Shown piece by piece: positions 16,442-54,008 of a DNA stretch of 64,000 nt (the first letter of the stretch is position 1; every line of letters begins with the position of its first letter). This DNA is from Candidatus Aenigmatarchaeota archaeon. GTDB lineage: Archaea > Aenigmatarchaeota > Aenigmatarchaeia > CG10238-14 > SCSR01. Below the pieces are notes generated by a model. It did not search any database. It was not told the DNA's origin and saw nothing but the letters and a program-made list of their open reading frames with translations. The stretch is taken from positions 74,689 to 138,688 of the forward strand of contig JAVZHQ010000002.1 of assembly GCA_038998335.1 (NCBI GenBank). Direction: 5' to 3'. The position numbers and the translations under genes are program-made.

Positions 16442-16480
16442 TATTTAAGCTTAGTATTAATAATTTTTATAGGTTACGCT

Positions 16481-16565
16481 GCCCCTGTAGTCTAGCCTGG
16501 ACAGGATAGAAGCTTGCGGTAAGAGTGAAAAGCTTCTGGCCCGGGTTCGAATCCCGGCAGGGGCA
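16481..16565 (+). tRNA. tRNA-Arg (GCG) with 11-nt intron at 37/38 (16520-16530)
   Basis: GCCCCTG/CAGGGGC acceptor, GAAGC-TTGCGG[intron]A-GCTTC, GGTTCGAATCC. Confidence 0.88.
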
Positions 16566-16594
16566 TTAAAAATTTAAAATACCAGTATTAAAAA

Positions 16595-23457: not shown

Positions 23458-23459
23458 AA

Positions 23460-23556
23460 TAGCCCCGAGCGGATTCGAACCGCTGTCACGAGGTTTCTTC
23501 CAGGCGACCAGAGCCTTCTACTCTTTTCGTATGCTTGGCCGCTACACCACGGGGCT
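23460..23556 (-). tRNA. tRNA-Gln (CTG) with two introns (23516-23526 at 29/30; 23495-23507 at 37/38)
   Basis: AGCCCCG/CGGGGCT acceptor, reconstituted CGAGG-CTCTGGA-CCTCG arm, AGCGG-TTCGAAT-CCGCT. Confidence 0.88.
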
Positions 23557-23922
23557 ATATGTAATAATTGAATGAGAAAAATTAAAAATGTGACATTCAG
23601 AAAAATATTTTAATTTATTTTCTTCAAATATTTTTAAGTGAAAGGGATGAAAGGTGAGTTAGAAACAACTTGTAATTTCTTCTTATTCCGATTTGTTTAA
23701 AGCTTCTTGTTTAGTTAATTCTTTACATTTTAGAAAATTCTTGAGCAAAAAAATGCTAAACCTTGTGCTTAAAAACTATAAAAACATAAAAATTATTTCA
23801 ATGTCAAATTATGCGTATCGAAGATGTGATAGAAAAATAATAGAATTAATAGAAAAGCATGGTATAAAATTAATTGTTAGACAAAACTTAGGAAGACCAA
23901 GTATGATAGAGAGGCGAATAAA

Positions 23923-31285: not shown

Positions 31286-31399
31286 CCCCGCTTAGCTCAA
31301 CGGTAGAGCGACCGGCTGTAGGCGAGCGCTTTGGCGCCTGCTAGTAGCCATCGCTCGGTTAATACCGGTAGGTTGGGAGTTCAACTCTCCCAGCGGGGA
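31286..31399 (+). tRNA. tRNA-Tyr (GTA) with 42-nt intron at 37/38 (31322-31363)
   Basis: C1-G72 acceptor CCCCGCT/AGCGGGG, ACCGG-CTGTAG[intron]A-CCGGT, GGGAG-TTCAACT-CTCCC. Confidence 0.88.
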
Positions 31400-40710: not shown

Positions 40711-42912
40711 GTGAAAAAAATGGCAAAGAAAGAGATGATTGAAAGGATCAAAGAAGCGATGAAAGATCCAGCAAGAATAAGAAATGTTGCAACAAGCTCT
40801 CATGTACATCATGGGAAAACTGCTTTAACTGATAACTTGATGGCTGGAGCAGGAATGTTAGCAGAAGAAATGGCAGGAAAAGTAATGTACACTTGGTTTG
40901 ATGAACAAGAGAGAAGAAGACAACTAACAATTTATGGAGCAAACGTTTCCATGGTTCATGAGTATGAAGGTAAAGATTATTTAATTAACTTAGTCGATAC
41001 TCCTGGTCATGTGGATTTTGGTGGTGATGTTACTAGAGCAATGCGTGCTGTTGACGGCACAATAGTTCTTGTATGCGCAGTTGAGGGAATAATGCCGCAA
41101 ACAGAAACAGTTTTCAGACAAGCTTTGAGAGAATACGTTAAGCCAGTTTTATTCATTAACAAGACCGACAGGCTGATAAAAGAGTTAAAATTATCACCAG
41201 AAGACATGCAAAAAAGGTTTGAAGAAATTATTCGTGATGTTAATATTCTGATTCAAAAGTATGCCCCTGAAGAGTTTAAGAATAAATGGTTAGTAAGCGT
41301 TGCAAATGGTAGTGTAGCGTTTGGTTCAGCAACTAAAAGATGGGCTATTTCTATCCCATACATGCAAAAAACTGGAATAACTTTTAAGGAGATTATTGAA
41401 CTCACATTAGCTGGAAAGGAAGATGAGCTAGCAAAAAAAGCTCCTCTACATCAAGTTGTTTTAGACATGATTATTAAACATTTACCAAATCCTTTAGAAG
41501 CTCAGAGGTATAGGCTATCAAAAATTTGGAAAGGAGATTTAGAATCAGAAATAGGGAAGCAAATGTTAGCATGCGATGCAAACGGAAGACTTGCTGCAAT
41601 AGTCACAAAAGTAGTTCCTGACCCACATGTAGGTTTTGTTGCAACAGCAAGAATTTTCTCAGGAAAAGTTTACAAAGGAAAGGACGTTTACTTGATAAAC
41701 CAGCATAAACAAGAAAAAATTCAGCAAGTTGCTGTTTACAAAGGAATATTGAGAATTCCTGTTGAAGAAGTTACTGCAGGAAACATCGCTGCAATAGTTG
41801 GAATTCCTGAAGCTTTCACAGGAGAAACTGTTTGTGAACCAGACAATATAATAGAACCTTTTGAAGAAATAAAGCATCTGTTTGAGCCTGTAGTGACAAA
41901 AGCTATTGAGCCAAAAAATCCTATGGAATTACCAAAGCTTGTTGAAGCTTTAAAGAGAATTGGAAAGGAGGATGCTGTTTTGCAAGTGAAAATAAATCAA
42001 GAAACAGGAGAATACCTTGTTTCTGGCTTAGGTGAACTTCATCTGGAGGCAAAAGTTGAGAATAAGCTTAAAGAAATGGGAATAGAAGTTGAGATGAGTA
42101 AGCCTATAGTTGTTTATAGAGAAACAATTTTTGATAAGTCTCCTACTATTGAAGGAAAAAGCCCAAACAAGCATAATAGATTTTACATAATGGTTGAACC
42201 TTTGGAAGAAAAAATATACCAAGCTATGAAAGAAGGAGAAATTCCAAGCACAGTAGAAGTTAAAACTAAAATGTTAGACTTGTTCAAAAAACTTTCTAAC
42301 TTAGGAATGGATTATGACGAGGCAAAAAGAATAGTTGTAATTTACAATAAAAACATGTTTATCGACTTAACAAAAGGTGTGCAATTTATGAATGAAGTTA
42401 TAGAAATGGTTAAAGATGCTTTTAAGGAAGTTATGGATGATGGACCATTAGCAAGAGAACCTTGCACTAAAGTGAAAGTTAAGCTTGTAGATGCTGAGCT
42501 TCATGAAGACCCTGTGCATAGAGGCCCAGGACAAATAATGCCTGCTGTAAGGTATGCTATAAGGCAGGGAATGCTTAAAGCTAACGCTACCTTGCTTGAA
42601 CCTAAACAAATAATAAGGATTGATGTACCTACTGAGCTAATGGGCGAGGCTACAAGAGAAGTTGAGAACAGAAGAGGGCAAATTTTAGACATGAAAGAAG
42701 AGAGGGGGGCAAGCGTTATAATAGCAAAGGTTCCTGTTTCTGACATGTTTGGTTTTGATGCTAGCTTAAAATCTGCAACCTCAGGAAGAGGATTTTATAG
42801 CTTGATAGAAACAGTTTTTGAAAAATTACCGAATGAACTAAGAGACGAAGTAATAAAAAGCATAAGGAAGAGAAAAGGTCTACCTGAAGAAATTCCTAAA
42901 CCTGAAGTATAG
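40711..42912 (+). CDS. fusA: elongation factor EF-2
   Basis: DTPGHVDFGGDV, NKTD, GLGELHLE, diphthamide loop HEDPVHRGPGQ. Confidence 0.96.
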   Translation: MKKMAKKEMIERIKEAMKDPARIRNVATSSHVHHGKTALTDNLMAGAGMLAEEMAGKVMYTWFDEQERRRQLTIYGANVSMVHEYEGKDYLINLVDTPGHVDFGGDVTRAMRAVDGTIVLVCAVEGIMPQTETVFRQALREYVKPVLFINKTDRLIKELKLSPEDMQKRFEEIIRDVNILIQKYAPEEFKNKWLVSVANGSVAFGSATKRWAISIPYMQKTGITFKEIIELTLAGKEDELAKKAPLHQVVLDMIIKHLPNPLEAQRYRLSKIWKGDLESEIGKQMLACDANGRLAAIVTKVVPDPHVGFVATARIFSGKVYKGKDVYLINQHKQEKIQQVAVYKGILRIPVEEVTAGNIAAIVGIPEAFTGETVCEPDNIIEPFEEIKHLFEPVVTKAIEPKNPMELPKLVEALKRIGKEDAVLQVKINQETGEYLVSGLGELHLEAKVENKLKEMGIEVEMSKPIVVYRETIFDKSPTIEGKSPNKHNRFYIMVEPLEEKIYQAMKEGEIPSTVEVKTKMLDLFKKLSNLGMDYDEAKRIVVIYNKNMFIDLTKGVQFMNEVIEMVKDAFKEVMDDGPLAREPCTKVKVKLVDAELHEDPVHRGPGQIMPAVRYAIRQGMLKANATLLEPKQIIRIDVPTELMGEATREVENRRGQILDMKEERGASVIIAKVPVSDMFGFDASLKSATSGRGFYSLIETVFEKLPNELRDEVIKSIRKRKGLPEEIPKPEV

Positions 42913-42994: not shown

Positions 42995-44275
42995 TTGATG
43001 CCTGCAAAACCACACATAAACATAATGACTGCAGGACATGTTGATGCTGGTAAATCAACTCTTATAGGAAGATTACTATACGAAACTGGAGCCATAAGAG
43101 ATGAAGAATTAAGAAAGTTAAAGGAATTGGCTACTCAACTTAAGAAAGAAACTTTCGAATATGCTTTTGTTATGGACAAGCTTAAAGAGGAAAGAGAAAG
43201 AGGTTTAACAATAGATATAATGCATCGCCCTTTTGAAACACAAAAATGGTTTTTCACTATAATCGACTGTCCTGGTCATAGAGATTTTGTTAAAAATATG
43301 ATAACTGGAGCAAGCCAAGCAGATGCTGCCATTTTTGTTATTTCAGCAAAGGAAGGAGAAGGTGTGCAAGAACAAACAAAAGAGCATGCTTGGCTCATGA
43401 AAGTTCTTGGAATTAAACAAATTATTGTTGTTTTGAACAAAATGGATACGGTAAACTATGACGAAAAAAGGTTTAACGAAGTAAAAGAGGAAGCAATAAA
43501 GTTGCTTAAAACTATTGGTTACAAAGTTGAAGAAATTCCTTTCATTCCAATTTCAGCTTACCATGGAGATAATGTTACTAAGAAATCTGATAAAACGCCT
43601 TGGTATAAAGGTCCTACCTTAGTTGAAGCCTTAGACACTTACATAAAAGAGCCAGAAAAACCTGTTGGAAAGCCATTAAGAATTCCAATCCAAGATGTTT
43701 ACAGCATAACAGGAGTTGGTACTGTTCCAGTAGGGAGGGTTGAAACAGGAGTTTTAAAAGTTGGCGACACTCTAGTTTTTGAACCACCAGGAGTAAAAGG
43801 TGAAGTTAAATCTATAGAAATTCACCATCAACCAATTCAAGAAGCTAAACCAGGAGATAATGTTGGGTTTAATGTAAGAGGAGTGAGCAAAACCGATATA
43901 AAGAGAGGGGATGTAGCAGGCCATCCTGACAACCCTCCAACTGTAGCAAAAGAGTTTACTGCACAAATTGTTGTTTTGCAACATCCAACAGTAATTAGTG
44001 CTGGTTATACTCCAGTTTTTCACTGTCATACTGCTTCAGTAGCTTGTACTATTACTGAAATAATTGCAAAGATTGACCCAAGAACAGGTGCAGTAATTCA
44101 GGAAAAACCTGATTTCATAAAAACTGGAGATGCAGCAAAGATTAGAGTTGTTCCTACCAAACCAATGGTTATTGAGAAGCAATCTGACTTTCCTGAGTTG
44201 GCAAGGTTTGCTATTCGTGACATGGGAATTACAGTAGCTGCTGGAGTTTGCTTGGATGTAGTAAAGGCCAAGTAG
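42995..44275 (+). CDS. tuf: elongation factor EF-1 alpha
   Basis: [37 protein letters not shown]. Confidence 0.97.
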
Positions 44276-44292
44276 TTATTTAGTATTATTTC
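44272..44292 (+). repeat. left terminal inverted repeat GTAGTTATTTAGTATTATTTC
   Basis: exact reverse complement of 51484-51504; contains the tuf TAG stop. Confidence 0.92.
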
Positions 44293-44337
44293 CCTGGCTC
44301 TTTTTTATTATTTTATTAGGCTGAGGCTTTATAAAGC

Positions 44338-44733
44338 TTGTGGTTAATTCTATTAATTGATATGGTTACATCTAAAAAAATACTAGAGATTAAAATAAAA
44401 AGAGATTGGTATGATTATGTTATGCTAATCTTGGTGGGGATTGGTACCTTTAGCGCATTATTTGGCGTGACTATACAAGTTCCAAAAATACAAGGCGCAT
44501 TAGAAAATATTAGCAAATCATATAATGCAAGTTTAAGTGAAAGATTATCAATCAAAGAAACTTTTACGACATGTGTCACGCATGCAAAAACACCACACAT
44601 AACAGAATGCTATACATGCAATGAATACCCCATAGAACAAATTAATGCAATTCTGCGTGTGTGCAATATAGAAATAACAGACTCTCTTACTAATACAACA
44701 AACAAAACACAAAAACTCGAATTAATAAAATAG
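44338..44733 (+). CDS. element-borne membrane-anchored hypothetical protein
   Basis: one TM then Cys/Thr-rich region; ATG start possibly 44362. Confidence 0.55.
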   Translation: MWLILLIDMVTSKKILEIKIKRDWYDYVMLILVGIGTFSALFGVTIQVPKIQGALENISKSYNASLSERLSIKETFTTCVTHAKTPHITECYTCNEYPIEQINAILRVCNIEITDSLTNTTNKTQKLELIK

Positions 44734-44817
44734 AAAAAATGTTTAAATTTCCATATTTTTTATTTCTCCTTTCCTTTATTATAAAATTATTTTTTTTCAG
44801 TCTTTTGGTTGAAGAAT

Positions 44818-45051
44818 CTAATACATTGAGCTTTGTTGAGTTGCTAAATATATGAAAACAACAACTACAATAAAAACTACAACTATACAAATAAATAGAA
44901 ATATATTACCCGTAGATATGAAGAAATCACCGGTTCCGGGTAAAATAGCATTCATTGTCCTACCCAAAACATTGCCAAAATAAGCCAATAAACCTAACGC
45001 TAATATTATTGAACCCATTATTCCTAGCACCACCCATATATTTATTTCCAT
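44818..45051 (-). CDS. element-borne two-TM protein
   Basis: 77-aa hydrophobic ORF. Confidence 0.6.
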   Translation of the reverse strand: MEINIWVVLGIMGSIILALGLLAYFGNVLGRTMNAILPGTGDFFISTGNIFLFICIVVVFIVVVVFIYLATQQSSMY

Positions 45052-45105
45052 ATCTCATGAGATGAAATCAAAAATATTTATTTTTATTCTTTGTTAATTG
45101 AATTA

Positions 45106-45453
45106 TTAACACTTACCAATAGTAGTAGTAATAGTATATCCTCTTTCAATCATCTTGCTGACTAACTCTTCTAAACTTACCCACTTCCTTTTCTTATTGC
45201 CTACCAAAAGATAGCACACGCACTCAACGATGTCTCTTGCTACACTATTATCTCTACTACTATTACTATCTACTATTACATTTGGCCCCATTATCTCTAC
45301 TACTTTATCCAGCGCAAACTGAGGATTTCTCATGTAGCTTCTAAGAAAAGGTAAGGTTAATCTTATACCGGCTTCTGTCACTACTAAAACATTATTAAGG
45401 TATAACTCGTTTACTATTTCTTCTATTTGTTGTAAACTTATTGAAATACTCAT
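45106..45453 (-). CDS. element-borne hypothetical protein
   Basis: ORF 45106..45522; ATG at 45453 overlaps the upstream stop. Confidence 0.55.
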   Translation of the reverse strand: MSISISLQQIEEIVNELYLNNVLVVTEAGIRLTLPFLRSYMRNPQFALDKVVEIMGPNVIVDSNSSRDNSVARDIVECVCYLLVGNKKRKWVSLEELVSKMIERGYTITTTIGKC

Positions 45454-45719
45454 CGAATCACCGCATTGCTTAATAATCGCATCCTTAGAACGATGCCGTG
45501 AGAGGCTCTTCTTTCGCACCAACCGTTTTTAACCCATAATGAAAGAATTTGTCTACCTATTCTCCAACAAATCTTTCTGTGACTAAACCAGAATCTTATA
45601 TAGCTATAATTTATCACTTTGTTGGGTGTTGTGTAGAAAGCGGGCAACTCCTCTAAAAATTTCTCAAACAAATATTTGGCATATTTGTTCTCCATATGAT
45701 TATTAACCATTAGAATCAC
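45450..45719 (-). CDS. element-borne small basic protein
   Basis: 89-aa ORF in a tightly overlapping minus-strand run. Confidence 0.5.
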   Translation of the reverse strand: MILMVNNHMENKYAKYLFEKFLEELPAFYTTPNKVINYSYIRFWFSHRKICWRIGRQILSLWVKNGWCERRASHGIVLRMRLLSNAVIR

Positions 45720-45794
45720 CCCGATTTCCAGATGAAGGTGATTCCTTCCACCATTTTCTTAGGACCTTAACATATTCTGGCAGGTTGTCTTCAT

Positions 45795-45929
45795 TCATTT
45801 TCTCTCACCTTTTCGCAATTCTTTCTCAAGAAGAACTCTTATAAAACCTGAAAAAGTTGAACCTCGTTTGTAGGCTTTCTTTTTTGCTTTTTCCTTCAAA
45901 CTTTTCGGTATTGAAATTGTAGCCCTCAT
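45795..45929 (-). CDS. ribbon-helix-helix (CopG-like) protein, absent from ORF track
   Basis: MRATISIPKSLKEKAKKKAYKRGSTFSGFIRVLLEKEL. Confidence 0.75.
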   Translation of the reverse strand: MRATISIPKSLKEKAKKKAYKRGSTFSGFIRVLLEKELRKGERK

Positions 45930-46034
45930 GGCGCAAATTTAAGTAATCTAATGTTAAATTCGGGTAGGTATCAAAAAATGATACTACTTATCTCAACAAT
46001 TATTTAAAAATAGTTACGCCGAAATTATTTTTAG

Positions 46035-46400
46035 ATGTTTAAAAAGTTTAAAATAAAAATATTAGAGTTGCTCGTAAAAAATTCTGTAAACTCTTTTGAA
46101 AAAGCAATTAGAATGGATGTTTATGAAGAAAGGTTAATGAAAGAGATTGGAATTGAAAATAAAACTTACTTCTATAAGATATTGTACGAAATGGAGAGAG
46201 GAAAGGCTATAACAAGAGTCGCTCACGGCCCAACGAACCGTGTTTATGTTTATATGACACCGAGTCAATACGAGCGGGTTAAAAAACTACTTCCTATTCT
46301 GAATGATTTAGAACTTGTTTTAGGTCTTATTTTAGTTTCGAATAAAGACATTAATAGGATTGTGGATACACTATTGCAAAAAATTTACGAAAAGTCTTGA
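46035..46400 (+). CDS. wHTH-like regulator
   Basis: GIENKTYFYKILYEMERGKAITR helix-wing pattern; divergent from the RHH gene. Confidence 0.55.
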   Translation: MFKKFKIKILELLVKNSVNSFEKAIRMDVYEERLMKEIGIENKTYFYKILYEMERGKAITRVAHGPTNRVYVYMTPSQYERVKKLLPILNDLELVLGLILVSNKDINRIVDTLLQKIYEKS

Positions 46401-46595
46401 AATTCTGCAAAAGTGCTTTATTTTAAGTAGATATAATTTTTAAAGTAAGAATAAGAAATTTTTGAATCTTTTAACAAATCTTTAAGAGTAAATCTTTCTA
46501 AAATACCAAGTTTATCCAAATCTTTGACTTTTTCGAGAAATTCTTTAGATTTTGAGATAAATAGTATATAAAAATTTCATACCATAAATTAAATT

Positions 46596-46823
46596 ATGAG
46601 AGGCGAGCTCATGGAATTAAGTTGTCCATTCTGTGACAGGGGGAAAATAGAAGTCTGGTATATTCCAAGCTATATTAAAATTAGAAGAATATCTGGCTCA
46701 TTTGGTAAGGGTCACGCCTTTTCTAAAAGTGCTGATATTTGGATAGTAAAATCAGGTTGTCCTGTTTGTGGTAAATCACCAAATGAAGTAGAAAGAGAAT
46801 TAAAACGAAAGAGAATAATTTAG
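46596..46823 (+). CDS. zinc-ribbon protein
   Basis: CPFC...CPVCG. Confidence 0.7.
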   Translation: MRGELMELSCPFCDRGKIEVWYIPSYIKIRRISGSFGKGHAFSKSADIWIVKSGCPVCGKSPNEVERELKRKRII

Positions 46824-46833
46824 GTTATAAATT

Positions 46834-47499
46834 ATGTCAGAAATTGACAAACAATCTAAAATAATTTTAAAAAATGGAGAAATTTTATGTTCTTTACCAA
46901 TTACTGCTCATACAAGTAAAATCAGAGTAAAGAGAAATGGAGAACCTTTAGCCACGCGTCAAAAAAATCTTCTTGATAGTGACTTGATAGAATGGCAAAT
47001 TTCTTACTATAAACCAAATACAAACAAAGAACTTTTTGAAATTGGGTTGATGTTAAAAATTGCTTATGAAAATGGAATTATTTCTAGAGAAGAATTAAAA
47101 AATATTAAGGAATATGTCAAGAAAGTTGATAAAACTTTCTTTGAGAGTTATTCTTTTAGAGTTGAGAAGTTAGAAGAAAATTTTTATGATTTTATGGTGA
47201 TGTTGAGAGAATTTCCCTTTCTTCGTAAATTTTTTAGCGATGGTTGCTCTTTAGAAATAGAAATAAAACACAAGCAAAAAGCTGTCGGGTTTCAACCTAT
47301 GCTTTATATTTTTATTCCTTTAAAAAATGTAGTTTCAGAAAATGAGAATAATTTAATCGGAAGAAAAGCAAGGCCAAAAGAAAGAGTGATTTGGAAACCT
47401 AATAAAATACATATAATTGAAACAATTAAGGCATTTGCTATAGCTTCTAAGACTCATCTGAATGATATCAAAGAAATTCTTAACAGGATTGAATCCTAA
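46834..47499 (+). CDS. R.PabI-family restriction enzyme (HALFPIPE fold DNA glycosylase)
   Basis: LPIT..SKIRVKR, IEWQISY, KQKAVGFQPMLY resemble R.PabI-family motifs; convergent with a methyltransferase. Confidence 0.75.
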   Translation: MSEIDKQSKIILKNGEILCSLPITAHTSKIRVKRNGEPLATRQKNLLDSDLIEWQISYYKPNTNKELFEIGLMLKIAYENGIISREELKNIKEYVKKVDKTFFESYSFRVEKLEENFYDFMVMLREFPFLRKFFSDGCSLEIEIKHKQKAVGFQPMLYIFIPLKNVVSENENNLIGRKARPKERVIWKPNKIHIIETIKAFAIASKTHLNDIKEILNRIES

Positions 47500-48622
47500 A
47501 CTCTAAAATATCACTTTTTTTAATTGATTTGCTACCAACCCTAAAAGTTAGGTTTTTGAAATGTTCTTGATTTTCATTTAGTATTCTGCATATTTTTTCC
47601 TTAAGTTCTTTATCTTTGTCATATTTTTCTTTAAACTTAAACACATAAAACATGTCATTCAAAACATCTTTCTTTATGTTTATTAATCCAGCCCTACCGA
47701 CACTTGTATTACCAACTCTAACGATAGCTAGATAATAATCTGAGACATTTTCACCTACAGGGATTTCAATTTTTTCTGTTATGTTTGAACCAGAAACATT
47801 ATTATTCGTGTAGGATTTTTTATAATAAACTTTTTCATTTGATAAAAACTCATATAATGGAATTCCCTTAAGGCATACATTTTTCTTGTATAAGAATGAT
47901 TTTGGTATAAGCTCTTCAGTTAATAGATTGGACTTATCTAATATTTCCTCGACCTTCCTACCCTCTTCATAAATAAGAATTATTTTATCTTTAAACTTTT
48001 CAACATTAGTAAATATGGCAAAACAGCATGGTATGGGCTCATCGACCCATTTTTTATTGTTTTGATACACTATAATGGTAGAAAATCTATTTAGAATTTC
48101 TCTTTTAACTTCCAAATTTTTTCCTTTTATAAAAAAGGAAATTGGTAGAACAAAACCAATAGTCGAATTTTCATCTTTTAAATGTTTAATAGACTTAAGA
48201 ATAAAGACATTCTCTATTTGTATTTTCTCTTTTTTAACCAATTTTTTTGTTAGGTATTCTTTGGGGTGAATAGGACTATTAAAATATTTTTTTGGAAAGT
48301 AGTAGCTTTCCTTTATGTTATATTTCGTGAAAGGCGGGTTACCTATAATTAGGTCAAATTTTTTATCTAAAGGGTAAAGGAAAAAGTCACAAGGTTGCTT
48401 TGTGAATTGTGGGTCAATCTCACAACCTTCTATGTTATTAAATCCTTTCTTTTTAAGAATTTTTATAAAATTACCTGTTCCAAAGGAGGGCTCTAAAATC
48501 TGAATTTTTTTATCATATTTTTTAAATTTCAGAATTAAATCTATAACTTTTTTTACTATTTCCTTTCTTGTAAAATATTGACCTAAAATGAATTTTTTAT
48601 TTATTTTCAAATTTATCACCAT
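47480..48622 (-). CDS. N6-adenine DNA methyltransferase, gamma class
   Basis: GQYFT, LEPSFGTGNF (motif I) before GNPPF (motif IV). Confidence 0.9.
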   Translation of the reverse strand: MVINLKINKKFILGQYFTRKEIVKKVIDLILKFKKYDKKIQILEPSFGTGNFIKILKKKGFNNIEGCEIDPQFTKQPCDFFLYPLDKKFDLIIGNPPFTKYNIKESYYFPKKYFNSPIHPKEYLTKKLVKKEKIQIENVFILKSIKHLKDENSTIGFVLPISFFIKGKNLEVKREILNRFSTIIVYQNNKKWVDEPIPCCFAIFTNVEKFKDKIILIYEEGRKVEEILDKSNLLTEELIPKSFLYKKNVCLKGIPLYEFLSNEKVYYKKSYTNNNVSGSNITEKIEIPVGENVSDYYLAIVRVGNTSVGRAGLINIKKDVLNDMFYVFKFKEKYDKDKELKEKICRILNENQEHFKNLTFRVGSKSIKKSDILEFRIQSC

Positions 48623-49263
48623 ATATTAGCCAATCTTTTATTGGCAAGTTTAACATACTTTGGATTAATTTCAAATCCTATAAAATTTCGATTGAGTTGT
48701 TTACAGGCGATAGCTGTGCTTCCACTTCCAATAAAAGGGTCTAAGATTAAATCATTTTCTTTGGTGAACATTATCAGTATATCTCGAATAAAATGCTTGG
48801 GTTTAGGTGTAGGGTGGTCTATATAGCCTTCATCAGGTTCGATCATCTTTGTTCCAGCTATATGCTCAAATAAATCTTTATTAGGTTGAATAATTTTCGG
48901 GTTTCCTTTCTTGAAAATGAAGCAAGACATATATTTTGTAATTCCTATTGGAGATTTAACATTTGCTTTTGGAGAATAAAAAATTATTTGCCAAAAGTAG
49001 ACAAATGGGTTGTTTATAAATAGTTTTGGTAGAAATTTTGTGCTAAAAAATGTAATGAAGAAACTATTATTTTTTAAAACCCTATAACATTCGGGTAAAA
49101 TTTTATAGAATGTGGTTAAATCCTCGTCGTTACGAATTCCCTCTTTTTTCAAGCCGTAAGGTGGGTCTGTGATAATTGCATCTATGGTTTCATCCGGTAT
49201 CTCTTTAATTAATTTTAAAGCATCGCCCAATACTATTTTGTTAATAAATTTGTCGATTGTCAT
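48616..49263 (-). CDS. N4-cytosine/N6-adenine DNA methyltransferase, beta class
   Basis: TDPPY, HPTPKP, LDPFIGSGST. Confidence 0.92.
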   Translation of the reverse strand: MTIDKFINKIVLGDALKLIKEIPDETIDAIITDPPYGLKKEGIRNDEDLTTFYKILPECYRVLKNNSFFITFFSTKFLPKLFINNPFVYFWQIIFYSPKANVKSPIGITKYMSCFIFKKGNPKIIQPNKDLFEHIAGTKMIEPDEGYIDHPTPKPKHFIRDILIMFTKENDLILDPFIGSGSTAIACKQLNRNFIGFEINPKYVKLANKRLANIW

Positions 49264-49416
49264 TATTCACACCATTTAAACTATGTTATTATCTTTTGAT
49301 ATCCATTTTTTTCTCAGTTAGCATTATAGTAATATATAACACTACCTATATTTAAAATTTAATAACCCTAACACTAAGGTTATAGATTTATATACTACTA
49401 AACACTTAAAGAATAT

Positions 49417-49551
49417 ATGGCCAAACGAATTTCTACAAGTATAAAAATAGACCCGGAAATCCTTAAACAAGCAAAACATTATGCAATTGATGAGGGTATT
49501 ACTTTTTCTGAATTGGTAGAAAGAGCATTAAAAAATGAAATAAAAAAATAA
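49417..49551 (+). CDS. ribbon-helix-helix protein, absent from ORF track
   Basis: MAKRISTSIKIDPEILKQAKHYAIDEGITFSELVERALKNEIKK; divergent from the MTases. Confidence 0.75.
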   Translation: MAKRISTSIKIDPEILKQAKHYAIDEGITFSELVERALKNEIKK

Positions 49552-49705
49552 ATTATCCGAAAAAATAGTTCGATTCTTATTTGAATTTTAATATTATCCA
49601 AACATTCAAAGATGTTCCAAAAGATTTGAGTAGAGAAGCTAAAATCGTTATTGGAACTGCATGGGTTTTATGGAATGAAATACCATATGAGTTTACGATT
49701 TGATT

Positions 49706-50281
49706 TTAATTTTTTTCTAAACTCCTTCTTTTCATCTCTTCTTCCTTCTTTTTCATATAAGCTTCATAAATTATGTCAAATTTTTCCAAAATAGCTGATT
49801 GATGGGGTTTTTCGATTTTTTGAATAATTGTAGGAGATTGGTACATTTCTCCTAAAACTTTCATTAAATGAATTTTTACAAGTAAAAGCCTGTCTATATT
49901 CTTATCCAACCTTCCTCCATCCTTTACTTCATACCACTTAGCCACTTCAAGTCTTCTATCTATATCTTCAAGCTCATTCCACATTAAATTTATTAATTGC
50001 TCCACATTTCTTGTGTTATATTTTTTGATTATAATTTTTTTGAAAGCACAAATCGCTCCTGTCTGATAAAAGCTACACCTATCTCTTATATAGCAACTAT
50101 CACAATCAATTATTTTAAATCTTCTCGCTCTCATCCCATGCTTAAATGCTGCCAAATTTCCTTTTACAAACCTTCCTGTTTTAGGGTCTCTGTCAATCTG
50201 CTTTACAACTGTTTCTCTGCTATCCTTAATTTTATTTTCACCGTTTGTGTTTTCTTGACCAACGGTGACCATAAACATCAC
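49706..50281 (-). CDS. hypothetical protein with terminase-small-subunit-like motif and 4-Cys cluster
   Basis: RDPKTGRFVKGN.AAFKHG then CDSC..RC..C; start overlaps integrase stop. Confidence 0.55.
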   Translation of the reverse strand: MMFMVTVGQENTNGENKIKDSRETVVKQIDRDPKTGRFVKGNLAAFKHGMRARRFKIIDCDSCYIRDRCSFYQTGAICAFKKIIIKKYNTRNVEQLINLMWNELEDIDRRLEVAKWYEVKDGGRLDKNIDRLLLVKIHLMKVLGEMYQSPTIIQKIEKPHQSAILEKFDIIYEAYMKKKEEEMKRRSLEKN

Positions 50282-51444
50282 TCCTCAAACAAATATTCCA
50301 AACCTCTCTCCTTGACCATTTGCCTAAAAACCTCTTTTACACTTTCGTCCCTATTTGCCAACACCAAAAGAAAATCTTTAACAAAATCATCAAAATCTTT
50401 CCTCACCTTTTCAGCTTCCAAAATCATTTTAATATCCAAAGGAGAGCCACACCTTTTACAAAAACTAAAAGATGATGGGTTGACTTCACCACATTTAAAA
50501 CATTTCTTAACTTCCTTGTTCATAACTTCTAAGAGCTTTTCATCTATCTCCTTTCCTGATAAATGATAATAAACAGAAGCCATCTTGCTATCTTTAGTCC
50601 AACCGAATATTTCCTTCATCACAGCTTCTGGTAAATGTTTTGCTAAATGAGTAGCTCTTGCGTGTCTGAAAGCATGAGGATTCACTCTTTTTTTAATTCC
50701 AACTTTCTCAGCCAACTTTTTTAAAATAGATTCAACTTGCACATAGGTTATTAATCCTCGTTTGTTTTTGCCCAAAGATATCCACACATAAGCTTCTGGG
50801 TCGTTTCTTAAAGGATGTACATCTAACCAATTTTCTAATTCCTTAACATACTCTATTATTCTCACTCTTCTCATTCCAGTTTTTCCGTCAACTATTAACA
50901 CACAGCCATGCTCATCAAAAATTATATTTTTAATTTTTAGGGAAAGCAACTCTCCTACTCTGCAACCCGATTCATAAAGTACGAGAACTAGGGCTTTATC
51001 TCTAAGATTGTTTGCTACTTTAGCCATCCTTTCTATTTCTTCTTTAGTCAAAATCTCTTCTGGTAAGAACTTGTTTTTCAACTTATGATTTAACTTAATC
51101 CATTCTACTTCTTCAGGATAAGTATTTGAGTTTCTCAACCATTTATAAAACCTCTTTAGCTCGCATTTAATCGCAGTTTTAGATTTCTCACTTCCGTACC
51201 TATTCTCTACTTCACTAACAACAGCTATGATATCCTCTTTTGTAGCTTCTGTAAATGGTTTGTTGAGAATTTTTGCTATCGTGGACAAAGCCCAAAGAAC
51301 ATTCCTCAAAGTAGCTTTTCTGAAGCCGTTTGCATTAAGAAGATTGAAGAACTTGAAGATAAGCTGTTTGTTCTCTTCGCATATAGAAGAGTTTTTAATT
51401 CTCTCAATATCTTTTTCCAAGCTTCTGGCAGTATTTAAGCTCAT
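50278..51444 (-). CDS. tyrosine recombinase/integrase with C-terminal zinc ribbon
   Basis: ESGCRVGE (R), DGKTG (K), HAFRH, FGW, VYYHL (Y); CFKCG..CKRCG. Confidence 0.95.
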   Translation of the reverse strand: MSLNTARSLEKDIERIKNSSICEENKQLIFKFFNLLNANGFRKATLRNVLWALSTIAKILNKPFTEATKEDIIAVVSEVENRYGSEKSKTAIKCELKRFYKWLRNSNTYPEEVEWIKLNHKLKNKFLPEEILTKEEIERMAKVANNLRDKALVLVLYESGCRVGELLSLKIKNIIFDEHGCVLIVDGKTGMRRVRIIEYVKELENWLDVHPLRNDPEAYVWISLGKNKRGLITYVQVESILKKLAEKVGIKKRVNPHAFRHARATHLAKHLPEAVMKEIFGWTKDSKMASVYYHLSGKEIDEKLLEVMNKEVKKCFKCGEVNPSSFSFCKRCGSPLDIKMILEAEKVRKDFDDFVKDFLLVLANRDESVKEVFRQMVKERGLEYLFEE

Positions 51445-51483
51445 AATTTTGCCTACCTTCTTTTTAGCCTAAATATGCCAGAA

Positions 51484-51504
51484 GAAATAATACTAAATAA
51501 CTAC
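51484..51504 (-). repeat. right terminal inverted repeat GAAATAATACTAAATAACTAC
   Basis: exact reverse complement of 44272-44292; 40 nt upstream of the integrase start. Confidence 0.92.
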
Positions 51505-51773: not shown

Positions 51774-51895
51774 ACTTAATGCTTGTTTTACAAGCTTATA
51801 AGCATTGTTTAACTATCAAAAGTTCAAAACAAACTTGTAAGAATTAATCAAGATTCCCTAAAATATTTAAATAAGCTTTACAAATCAAAATTCTA

Positions 51896-51909
51896 GAAAA
51901 GTTTAAATA
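51896..51909 (+). promoter_or_regulatory. putative BRE/TATA promoter for the LAGLIDADG-rps10-cmk unit
   Basis: GAAAAG-TTTAAATA, nearly identical to the element upstream of tuf, about 33 nt before the ATG. Confidence 0.5.
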
Positions 51910-51941
51910 ATTTAACTCAATAACACAAGAGAAGTGGTATT

Positions 51942-53075
51942 ATGAAAATTGATTTAGAAAACATAGCAAAAGAAGTTTTTAAGAAAAAACCTTTGGTAAT
52001 AAAAAAAATAGACAAAAATCTAATTAAAGTTTTCTATAAAGGTAAAAGTCCAAGAAACACACCAAAACCAATAATTCTTCCAAAAATAATAAATTTGGAT
52101 GAAGAAATTATTGAGAATGTTGGAATGTACATTGGTGATGGAACTCTCTCACCAACCAGAAAACATCAAATAGAATTTACTACTATAGATGTAGACATGG
52201 CAAAAAAATTCCTCGATTTTTTAACGAAAAGATGGTGTGTTAAAATACAAAATATAACCTTTATTTTAAAGTACAACAAAGGAAACAAAAAAACAATAAA
52301 AGAAAAATGGAAAAAATATCTAAATGTCCCAAGTGAAAAACTTCTAGTTAAAAAAGAAACTAAATATAATGCTCGAGATTCTCTGACAATTATTGTTAAC
52401 AGCTTGATTTTTACTCAAGTATTCAAAAAATTTATTAAAAAATCACTACCATTAATTAAACTAAATTCTAAATTAATAAAAGCATTTCTAAGAGGAGAAT
52501 TTGCAGCTGATGGAAAATTTATAGTAGAAAAAGATACCAATACCTACTATATCTCTGAAATAACCTTCTGTTATAACTATCCTAAAGAGTTATGGTTACG
52601 GAATTACTTAGTCGAATGCCTAACGAAAGAAGGAATAACAAAAATCAATGAAAACCGAAAAGGCTTTATTAGAATTACCGGCTGGAATAATTATTTTAAA
52701 TTATGGAAGATGGGAATTTTTAACTGTTGTAAGAGAAAAAAAGAAAAATTTCTATCAACGATTAAACAATCAAAAATTCATCTTATGGTAGATGTTGAAA
52801 CAATTAAACAAATTATAAATTCTTCGAGTCTGACCAAAAAGGCCATAGCAAATAAAGTTGGTATAAATAGATCAAATCTTTTTAGAGTTCTAAATGGTAA
52901 ACAACTTATGACAATTGAACAATTTAATGCACTTACTCAATTAATTGATAATCATTTAAATACTTATCAAAATCAAATAAGTAAAATTAGGATTGGTAAA
53001 CTTACTTATTTGCCATTTTCCCGAGAATTTATAAATTTTGTTGCAAAAGAAAAATTGATAAAAGGTGATAGGTAA
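51942..53075 (+). CDS. free-standing two-motif LAGLIDADG endonuclease with C-terminal XRE-like HTH
   Basis: VGMYIGDG and FLRGEFAADG motifs; LTKKAIANKVGINRSNLFRVLNG HTH. Confidence 0.85.
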   Translation: MKIDLENIAKEVFKKKPLVIKKIDKNLIKVFYKGKSPRNTPKPIILPKIINLDEEIIENVGMYIGDGTLSPTRKHQIEFTTIDVDMAKKFLDFLTKRWCVKIQNITFILKYNKGNKKTIKEKWKKYLNVPSEKLLVKKETKYNARDSLTIIVNSLIFTQVFKKFIKKSLPLIKLNSKLIKAFLRGEFAADGKFIVEKDTNTYYISEITFCYNYPKELWLRNYLVECLTKEGITKINENRKGFIRITGWNNYFKLWKMGIFNCCKRKKEKFLSTIKQSKIHLMVDVETIKQIINSSSLTKKAIANKVGINRSNLFRVLNGKQLMTIEQFNALTQLIDNHLNTYQNQISKIRIGKLTYLPFSREFINFVAKEKLIKGDR

Positions 53076-53425
53076 ATGCAAATAGCAAGAATAAAACTTT
53101 TAGGAAGAGACCCAAAAGAATTGGATAGCATTTGCAATGAAATAAAGGAAATAGCAAAAAAATTAGGTGTAGATTATAGAGGACCGATTCCCTTACCAAC
53201 AAAAAAATTGAAAGTAGTAACTATGAAAACTCCTTGTGGCGACGGGACACTAAACTAGACATCTAGTTTAGCCCGAAAGGCCATGGAAATGCTACTTTTG
53301 ATAGATGGGAGATGAGAATTCATAAGCGTCTAATAGATGTTAAAGCTGATGAAAGAGCTTTAAGACAAATAATGAGAATTAATATTCCTACTAATGTTCA
53401 CATTGAAATCAAGCTTTTAGGTTAA
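53076..53425 (+). CDS. rps10: 30S ribosomal protein S10, spliced: join(53076..53248,53278..53425), 106 aa
   Basis: Exon 1 MQIARIKL...GPIPLPT...KTPCGDG; exon 2 ...[14 protein letters not shown]...RQIMRI..P..V.IEI in another frame; 29-nt removal restores the frame. Confidence 0.92.
53249..53277 (+). other. predicted 29-nt bulge-helix-bulge mRNA intron in rps10
   Basis: CGGG-AC^A-CTAAACTAGA-CA-TCTAGTTTAG-CCCG-AA^A. Confidence 0.85.
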
Positions 53426-53456
53426 TTTTTAACTTTTAAAAAAATAACTTTTTCTT

Positions 53457-54008
53457 ATGAAGAAAAAGTTGGTAATAGTTATTTCTGGCCCTCCTGGAGT
53501 TGGAACATCAAGCGTAGCAAGAGAAATAGCTAAAAAATTAAAGCTAAGATATCTTTCACCTGGAAAAACCTACAAAAGTTTTTTGAGTGAAAAAGAAGCG
53601 AAAGCAGCTTTGGAATTCTGGAAAACTGAATTTGGAAGAAGTAAAAAATTACATAAAGCCTTAGATGAAAGCCAAGTTAAGGAAGCAAAAAAAGGTAACC
53701 TAGTAATTTGTGGTAAGCTTTCAATTTATTTTCTCAAAGACTTAGCTGACTTAAAAGTTTGGTTAGAAGCTCCCTTAGAAATAAGAGCAAAAAGAACTGC
53801 AGAAAGAGATAATATTCCTTTTGAAGAAGCTTTGAGACAAATAAGTGAAAGAGAAAATATTGAAAGAAAAAAATGGAAAGAAATATATGGTTTTGATTAT
53901 TTCAACCAAAAAAAAGATGCTGACCTTGTTTTAAATACTTCAAACCTAACTCTTGAAGAAACTGTAAATAAAATTCTAGAGTTTATGAAATCAAAAAGCT
54001 TGATTTAA
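53457..54008 (+). CDS. cmk: cytidylate kinase, archaeal type
   Basis: ISGPPGVGTSS, WLEAPLEIRAKR..ERD, YG.D, D..LNT. Confidence 0.85.
   Translation: MKKKLVIVISGPPGVGTSSVAREIAKKLKLRYLSPGKTYKSFLSEKEAKAALEFWKTEFGRSKKLHKALDESQVKEAKKGNLVICGKLSIYFLKDLADLKVWLEAPLEIRAKRTAERDNIPFEEALRQISERENIERKKWKEIYGFDYFNQKKDADLVLNTSNLTLEETVNKILEFMKSKSLI

Follow-up and report, generated by a model that had tools for sequence, protein, structure and literature searches.

A free-standing LAGLIDADG endonuclease gene abutting an intron-split rps10 in a small archaeal genome: a candidate for collaborative homing

In cyanophage S-PM2 the gene for the free-standing endonuclease F-CphI is beside the intron-containing psbA gene (Zeng, Bonocora and Shub 2009, as described in PMC6083498). 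By experiment, as far as the account in PMC6083498 goes, F-CphI cuts intronless psbA where the intron would insert; the intron protects its own gene copy from cleavage and gains mobility from the enzyme. The mobE / I-TevIII case of phage T4 (PMC2790892) is related. We analyzed a 64,000-nucleotide stretch (the window; unprefixed positions are those of the window) of a Candidatus Aenigmatarchaeota archaeon genome, here G000 (1.0 Mb, 9 contigs, 90% complete). A free-standing LAGLIDADG homing-endonuclease gene (51942-53075, plus strand; 1134 nt, 377 aa) ends with a TAA (53073-53075) directly before the ATG of the ribosomal protein gene rps10 (53076-53425, plus strand), and rps10 is split by a mini-intron of the tRNA-type, bulge-helix-bulge (BHB) kind. 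The earlier note on this DNA proposed an archaeal version of collaborative homing using such an intron. Our analysis favors the same reading at a rough probability of 0.5: the gene, its mobility, the intron and the association of the two stand on the data given below, and the figure is held at this level because the cut site is a prediction.

As far as the F-CphI/psbA pair is described, the window shares its layout, a free-standing endonuclease gene adjoining a conserved gene with an intron lacking an open reading frame (ORF), and the same logic is proposed. The setting is different, an archaeal chromosome instead of a phage. The enzyme would combine a LAGLIDADG core with a helix-turn-helix-like (HTH-like) domain, unlike the Endo VII or HNH types, and the intron is a 28-35-nt BHB intron that would be spliced by proteins, not a self-splicing group I intron. 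The interrupted gene encodes an essential ribosomal protein, and cleavage and immunity, which for F-CphI are experimental according to the same description, are proposed for the window. Intron-only alleles are an expected product of the collaborative homing scheme.

The archaeal enzymes I-DmoI, I-Tsp061I and I-PorI are encoded inside BHB introns of rRNA genes. They resemble the system of the window in enzyme fold, intron kind and host splicing machinery. Unlike them, the enzyme gene of the window is outside its host gene, which codes for a protein, and the intron has no room for a coding sequence. The order of a LAGLIDADG core followed by an HTH is shared with WhiA (PDB 3hyi), a degenerate LAGLIDADG transcription factor; in contrast to WhiA, both catalytic acidic residues are kept here and the gene is optional and mobile.

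A BHB intron too short to encode a nuclease has been described in the cbf5 pre-mRNA of Desulfurococcales and Sulfolobales (PMC2738675). The accessible part of that paper links no nuclease gene to the cbf5 intron, unlike the rps10 intron studied here, and within the literature found, this source included, cbf5 is the only experimentally confirmed BHB intron of an archaeal protein gene that is named (PMC2738675). According to the same part, the cbf5 intron lineage is crenarchaeotal, whereas here the host is a 1-Mb genome with relatives labelled Nanoarchaeota, Woesearchaeota or Aenigmatarchaeota. The literature found covers cbf5 introns, phage collaborative homing and intron-encoded archaeal LAGLIDADG enzymes; published full text, supplementary tables excepted, yielded no case of an archaeal protein gene in which a BHB intron has a free-standing LAGLIDADG gene as its partner.

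The search of 5.8 billion proteins detected 19 relatives of the window endonuclease (23-99% identity), nearly all of about 375 aa. Motif 1 (NVGMYIGDG, 52116-52142, plus strand) contains the catalytic D66 at the end of model helix 54-66, and motif 2 (AFLRGEFAADG, 52482-52514, plus strand) contains the catalytic D190 in model helix 176-190. In the alignment of the 19 homologues G65 and D66 are invariant, G67 is nearly so, and the stretch LRGEFAADG of motif 2 is nearly invariant (G185, F187, A188, G191). Among the aligned homologues covering this region, only the two most distant ones replace D190, by E. Across homologues of 29-64% identity the acidic residue of each motif is kept, and protein length and motifs hold in relatives of as little as 41% identity. 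The earlier note had read the gene as a free-standing LAGLIDADG endonuclease with an acidic residue in both motifs and a stop codon abutting the rps10 start; the junction is exact, both residues are present, and the predicted fold agrees with the conserved catalytic residues on the identity of the product.

The AlphaFold model built on the homologue alignment (predicted local distance difference test, pLDDT, 92.1; predicted template modelling score, pTM, 0.89) shows the double alpha-beta-beta-alpha-beta-beta-alpha core. Foldseek against the PDB gave 55 matches at an expect value (E) <= 0.001; of the 50 listed, almost every one is a LAGLIDADG protein, such as the TliVMA intein endonuclease (E 1.4e-7), I-AniI, I-Tsp061I, I-DmoI and I-SceI; the bI3 maturase (2ab5) and the regulator WhiA (3hyi, rank 12) are also among the matches listed. 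The window protein scores 21.9 bits with Pfam LAGLIDADG_3, below the gathering cut-off of 22.5, a near miss that is outweighed by the modelled fold; a precomputed PF14528 match exists for four homologues. The candidate HTH-like domain is helical and C-terminal (residues ~285-345, 52794-52976, plus strand). Pfam gives sub-threshold HTH matches only (residues 274-353), and the last 90 residues form a five-helix bundle in the model, consistent with an HTH; homologue P0004 is named XRE-type antidote protein by one source. The modelled product is a two-motif LAGLIDADG enzyme with an extra C-terminal domain of DNA-binding type and both catalytic aspartates. The family-alignment scan of viral contigs found no relative of the endonuclease. 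The G000 genome as a whole has 31 LAGLIDADG_3 matches in 1.0 Mb, many of them within ORFs of 800-2000 codons, presumably inteins with several per host gene, and about seven in free-standing ORFs of 217-475 codons.

The endonuclease gene behaves as a mobile cassette, with exact presence/absence alleles, decayed footprints and a recently shared tract. G062 and G061 are intronless genomes of the same genus with empty alleles, and relative to both of them the gene is an exact 1134-nt insertion: against G062 homology runs through rps10 to 53073 and resumes at 51938, and against G061 one set of 8 bases aligns to 51942-51949 as well as to 53076-53083. Metagenome contigs of public runs, from comparable samples, skip from 51941 to 53076 (1134 nt) in runs X13 and X8 and from 51940 to 53075 in X2, and other contigs of these three runs cover the gene interior. 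Contig joints at under 95% likeness may stem from related organisms, which is still the setting that homing needs.

The cassette is flanked by rps10 regulatory sequence. The first copy of the rps10 promoter and leader (51852-51941, plus strand) contains two TTTAAATA-type boxes and a GAAGTGGT Shine-Dalgarno-like run, and is 90-93% identical to the sequence directly 5' of the rps10 ATG in G062, G061 and G065; it probably serves as the promoter of the endonuclease gene today. The 3' end of that gene is at the same time the rps10 leader (53017-53075, plus strand) and contains a degenerate second promoter copy, with TTTATAAAT near 53029-53037 (some 40 nt ahead of the ATG), and the run GGTGAT (53064-53069). 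In G037 the native rps10 TATA box is still intact in this second copy, where the last codons of the endonuclease overlap it; in the window the second copy is degenerate. Autoregulation of a promoter shared with rps10 through the HTH, as once suggested, found no support; the gene has its own rps10-promoter copy and carries the degenerate copy in its 3' end. The N-termini of homologues (MQVARIKL, MQVARIEL, MQTAEIDL and MKIDL) echo the rps10 start MQ(I/V)ARIKL, and those of P0005-P0008 copy it best.

Footprints of the gene were detected in two intron-bearing genomes. G064, the contig of which starts 128 nt 5' of rps10, retains about 11 nt of the gene 5' end and about 55 nt of its 3' end, and G004 has a similar remnant that is absent from its genus-mates. 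The 12-mer TTCCC[AG]AGAATT of the gene 3' end is found 5' of rps10 solely in G063, G064 and G004 (39 loci, 50.8 kb). The six-frame profile search of up to 1.5 kb upstream of rps10 in the 39 loci matched only G037 and G063; the G064 and G004 footprints are too short for a protein-level search and were detected at the DNA level. A 12-nt match to the gene 5' end upstream of rps10 in G047 (E 0.034) was rejected as too weak for a footprint.

G000 and G063 have zero differences over 52883-53433; their identity stays at 96.5-100% as far as 54682 and drops to 76-87% past 55083, while G064 and G062 are 63-88% identical to G000 along the whole compared stretch. The tract thus stands out from a background near 80%. 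The G000-G063 tract matches what recent cassette-centred gene conversion would leave, the alternative being a chimeric contig of a metagenome-assembled genome (MAG). The G063 contig C81 begins inside the endonuclease gene, with only its last 193 nt present, and the G065 contig C32 ends within 5 nt of the promoter/ATG junction; such contig breaks at cassette borders hint at mixed alleles in those populations. At the metagenome locus L073 (62% identity) there is no endonuclease stop before rps10, the endonuclease frame continues for about 20 codons within rps10, in a frame different from that of rps10, and rps10 starts with TTG.

The intron begins 173 nt downstream of the rps10 ATG, which confirms the distance of about 170 nt given previously. 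On the NCBIfam uS10 model (TIGR01046), residues 4-58 of the first rps10 ORF align to positions 3-57 (exon 1, 53076-53248, plus strand) and the second ORF, in another frame, to positions 65-99 (exon 2 with the stop codon, 53278-53425, plus strand). Between them is the 29-nt type-A mini-intron (53249-53277, plus strand), with a 1-nt boundary ambiguity (or 53250-53278, A53249 being identical to A53278). Its removal gives one 106-codon frame, joined as GDGT-GHGN and identical to the intact protein of the intronless G062. The GDGTGHGN loop, with T or C in the fourth position, is found in 30 of 30 intact rps10 genes read. The 30-nt intron string occurs once in the genome at up to 3 mismatches, so it is no repeated element.

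The RNA of 53225-53300 folds at -25.5 kcal/mol (z = -4.06), and 0 of 200 shuffles were as good. The predicted structure has an outer exon-exon helix (53236-53240 with 53280-53284), a central 4-bp helix of CGGG with CCCG (53243-53246 with 53272-53275), a 5' bulge of 3 nt, ACA (53247-53249), a 9-bp hairpin (53250-53258 with 53263-53271), and a 2x4 internal loop on the 3' side (53241-53242 versus 53276-53279). Cuts predicted after the second base of each bulge would excise 29 nt and restore the mature sequence. In seven type-A sequences 92.9% of the cells pair and 8 of 20 pairs are changed on both sides; 0 of 500 shuffles did as well, and in slid controls 21-47% of the cells pair. G000 encodes both the splicing endonuclease EndA (PF01974, 95 bits) and RtcB (PF01139, 547 bits). 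Contigs joined across the intron were found in none of four runs, of which only the DNA run X2 covers the site; two runs labelled as metatranscriptomes are flagged as 'probably DNA'. The fold, the restored frame and the GDGTGHGN loop agree with the former claim of a tRNA-type mini-intron in the most conserved rps10 codons.

We surveyed the family with the uS10 model and found rps10 in 67 of 70 genomes, 10 of them flagged as split. The split in G059 was rejected as a break at a contig end, as its rps10 reads through the site without an intron. Nine genomes bear an intron, namely G000, G063 and G064 (g1), G004 (g2), G047 (g21), G026 (g15) and G034, G035 and G037 (g16), and 58 are intronless. Type A (28-32 nt) is inserted after GAC GGG AC in g1, g2, g15, g21 and the metagenome loci L073/L074 and L075. 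Type B (32-35 nt) is inserted after GGA G, 7 nt upstream of the type-A site, in g16, and has the canonical order of helix, 3-nt bulge, 4-bp helix, 3-nt bulge and helix. The two types are dissimilar in sequence and are only 7 nt apart within one ~20-bp stretch. All 10 interrupted alleles examined regain the 106-codon frame with GDGTGHGN after removal of 28-35 nt. In the exon tree the intron-bearing alleles nest in their own genus beside intronless ones (G000-G062, G004-G002, G034-G028), so the intron comes and goes on vertically inherited exons. A signal of exon co-conversion was looked for and rejected, since the exon tree follows the genera; the exon bases common to all type-A alleles pair in the BHB and are thus uninformative for conversion.

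Whole-genome protein searches detected full-length relatives of the endonuclease in 6 of the 70 family genomes and the 3' end in G063 at a contig start. The relatives form two clades, each with a fixed address. Clade 1 (41-100% identity) is always between tuf and rps10, and includes the window, G063, G037 (44%), L073/L074 (62%), L075 (41%) and L076 (47%; the contig ends inside the endonuclease gene). Wherever rps10 is visible in this clade it is split by the intron, in four diverged lineages, or five with the G004 footprint. Type A accompanies the gene in the window, L073 and L075, and type B in G037.

The gene or its footprint precedes rps10 in five of the nine intron-bearing genomes (G000, G063, G064, G004, G037) and in none of the 58 intronless ones. 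The naive Fisher test on these counts gives ~1e-5, which is overstated because the genomes are related; the decisive count is that of five separate lineages without an exception. The survey of co-occurrence proposed in the earlier note thus finds the gene always with the intron (three family and two metagenome lineages). The refuting outcome named in the note, independent occurrence of the two, was not observed: the gene implies the intron, although four genomes have the intron with no trace of the gene. The pattern suggests that the intron shields the essential rps10 from the enzyme and may spread with it.

The one-sided pattern recurs in G000 with an unrelated enzyme and a different gene (G000:C1:119765-122073; locus L089, 515-2826). 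The second free-standing LAGLIDADG gene (G000:C1:119765-120601, 279 aa) overlaps the start of rtcB by 4 nt, and its product has no BLASTP likeness to the rps10-side enzyme (E 0.85). The G000 rtcB has an 18-nt in-frame insert with two TAA codons in the conserved GY/GFPIGG motif (split at the slash), about 230 nt from the start. Four other genomes have an orthologue of the 279-aa enzyme (56-77% identity) next to rtcB, namely G053 (itself with two stops), G020, G038 and G019, and in each of them rtcB is interrupted. Interrupted rtcB without this enzyme is common. The fold of 81 nt around the rtcB insert is no better than shuffles (z = -0.61), and a BHB is not claimed there.

We propose a two-part selfish element, composed of an endonuclease gene with a captured rps10 promoter and first codons and of an ORF-less BHB intron of 28-35 nt, 166-173 nt into rps10, in the GDGTGHGN loop codons. 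The enzyme would recognise and cut the uninterrupted loop-coding DNA of element-free alleles. When the cut is repaired from a carrier allele, the intron would be copied every time and the gene 170 nt upstream only with a long enough conversion tract; the flanking promoter copies would give a ready route for converting the intron alone. In the carrier the intron would split the recognition site and protect the sole rps10 copy, and either intron type, 7 nt apart, would split a site of ~20 bp. The host tRNA-splicing endonuclease and RtcB ligase would excise the intron from the mRNA. Later the endonuclease gene may decay or be deleted, while the intron remains. The cleavage site, the immunity given by the intron and splicing in vivo are predictions drawn from the sequences compared here. 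Collaborative homing accounts for the rule that the gene implies the intron, for clean intron-only alleles, for two intron types and for the rtcB parallel.

Several observations weigh against this proposal. The intron is found with a clean, empty upstream site in G047, G026, G034 and G035 (50-56 nt separate tuf from rps10 in G034 and G035), and these intron-only genomes fit collaborative homing and also simple hitch-hiking. The kinship of the genomes inflates the apparent independence of the association counts. A target shielded by type B would have barred homing into an allele that already had type B, so the gene must have preceded type B in G037 and later been lost from G034 and G035. The 3' side of type A is a 2x4 internal loop, a relaxed form and not the canonical 3-nt bulge. 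The G063 MAG contig with the near-identical tract starts inside the gene, and an assembly chimera is possible. At rtcB, a heavily decayed remnant of the second enzyme in G068 is beside a gene uninterrupted over profile positions 1-209. Of the 38 differences listed among close metagenome variants of the rps10-side gene, 16 are synonymous and 22 non-synonymous (33% synonymous expected under random transitions), pointing to weak present-day constraint; G185R in motif 2 is among the listed variants, on one low-depth contig.

The sister clade is a further difficulty of this kind. Clade 2 (29-36% identity; L067-L070 and L077-L087) always adjoins topoisomerase VI subunit A (top6A), in hosts labelled Nanoarchaeota, Woesearchaeota and Aenigmatarchaeota, and is placed downstream on the same strand, convergent with overlapping stops, or between top6B and top6A. 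The top6A and top6B genes beside clade-2 members are unbroken, with no intron partner there. These relatives manage without an intron, perhaps by sitting in or next to their own target. A 216-nt gap in top6B of L084 (1082-1299) was considered as an intron and rejected, as it is an open in-frame Lys/Glu-rich insertion of ~72 codons.

The alternative that survives best is classical homing, in which the insertion of the gene splits the enzyme's own target at the rps10 promoter and start, with the intron as a neutral passenger that chanced to be 170 nt away in the first carrier and travels in the co-conversion tract. We regard this as possible, though well short of an even chance. The gene is in a single fixed place in all clade-1 members, flanked by two rps10 copies from promoter to codon 8, and homologue N-termini (MQVARIKL, MQTAEIDL, MKIDL) resemble the rps10 start MQIARIKL; however, a target site wholly in codons 1-8 would persist in the downstream copy, and the sequence 5' of the rps10 ATG is unconserved between genera, a poor target for spread. 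The G000-G063 shared tract, of at least 1.8 kb, reaches well beyond 170 nt, the clade at top6A does without an intron, and deletion between the flanking direct repeats could give clean intron-only alleles, all in line with a passenger intron. The second intron type 7 nt away (G037) and the rtcB layout with an unrelated enzyme would, in contrast, be left to chance.

The weak constraint among close variants, with 16 synonymous and 22 non-synonymous differences and G185R, would also be expected if the gene were a decaying or inactive relic, with a historical intron association and no cutting today. The footprints in G064 and G004, the L076 copy without a canonical in-frame start codon, and the L073 copy that lost its stop and runs into rps10 for ~20 codons point the same way. 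The window copy, however, is open over its full length and has both catalytic aspartates and a confidently modelled fold, the family keeps its length and motifs down to 41% identity, and 550 nt without a difference between G000 and G063 argue for recent transfer, so we consider a relic unlikely. Least probable of all is a domesticated WhiA-like LAGLIDADG-plus-HTH regulator of rps10 (of top6A in the sister clade) or an intron maturase, which the fold matches to WhiA (3hyi) and the bI3 maturase (2ab5), the C-terminal HTH-like domain and the conserved gene neighbourhoods of both clades would allow, but WhiA is a conserved bacterial regulator that has lost the catalytic acidic residues retained here, the gene has a very patchy distribution (6 of 70 family genomes with full-length matches, G063 with the 3' end), occurs as exact presence/absence alleles and has decayed in places, and BHB introns are cut by the host endonuclease and require no maturase.

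Beyond collaborative homing, free-standing LAGLIDADG endonucleases may create as well as spread BHB introns in protein and tRNA genes of small-genome archaea, an extension that we consider doubtful. After a cut in an essential gene, the survivors would be repairs that destroy the site and are still removable from the RNA; hairpin-rich filler folding with the flanking exon into a BHB would be fixed as an 'immunity intron' and then copied by the same enzyme. Such a process would explain the two unrelated introns 7 nt apart in rps10, their form as near-perfect palindromes with a 3' part pairing with the exon, and the parallel layout with an unrelated enzyme at rtcB.

The usual archaeal gene order is found in the window: rpoA2, L30e, NusA, S12, S7, elongation factor EF-2 (40711-42912), EF-1alpha/tuf (42995-44275) and later rps10, followed by cytidylate kinase (53457-54008), a metallo-beta-lactamase-fold protein and PolB. 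Three extras separate tuf from rps10: an inverted-repeat element, a 58-codon minus-strand ORF and the endonuclease gene. The integrated element (44272-51504, 7.2 kb) directly follows the tuf stop, and its ends are perfect 21-nt inverted repeats (44272-44292 and 51484-51504). Inside are a tyrosine recombinase (integrase) with a zinc ribbon (50278-51444, minus strand; profile-scanned), two methyltransferase-like ORFs (47480-49263, minus strand; named from sequence only) and several small ORFs. The endonuclease gene was correctly placed outside this element, as the repeats end at 51504 and the gene begins at 51942. G061, of the same genus, lacks the element and has a tuf-to-rps10 spacer of 277 nt.

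Some tRNA genes of the window are probably also intron-bearing. They are the 114-nt tRNA at 31286-31399, called by Rfam and absent from the ARAGORN output, and those at 16480-16566 (87 nt) and 23459-23557 (99 nt).

For the origin and movement of short ORF-less archaeal introns this locus would give a concrete answer: the adjoining nuclease would provide mobility and the intron immunity. Natural empty, full and decayed alleles exist in the same genus and in hot-spring communities, and the runs that hold the window DNA are labelled hot-spring metagenomes. There is a practical consequence as well, since rps10, a standard marker gene, is mis-called as two fragments in these genomes, and likewise rtcB. 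New meganuclease specificities could come from the enzyme family, which joins a LAGLIDADG core to an HTH-like domain and has clades at different conserved genes. If the proposed reading is true, the range of collaborative homing would widen beyond phage group I introns to include archaeal chromosomes and introns spliced by proteins, and would help to explain the patchy introns of DPANN-type archaea.

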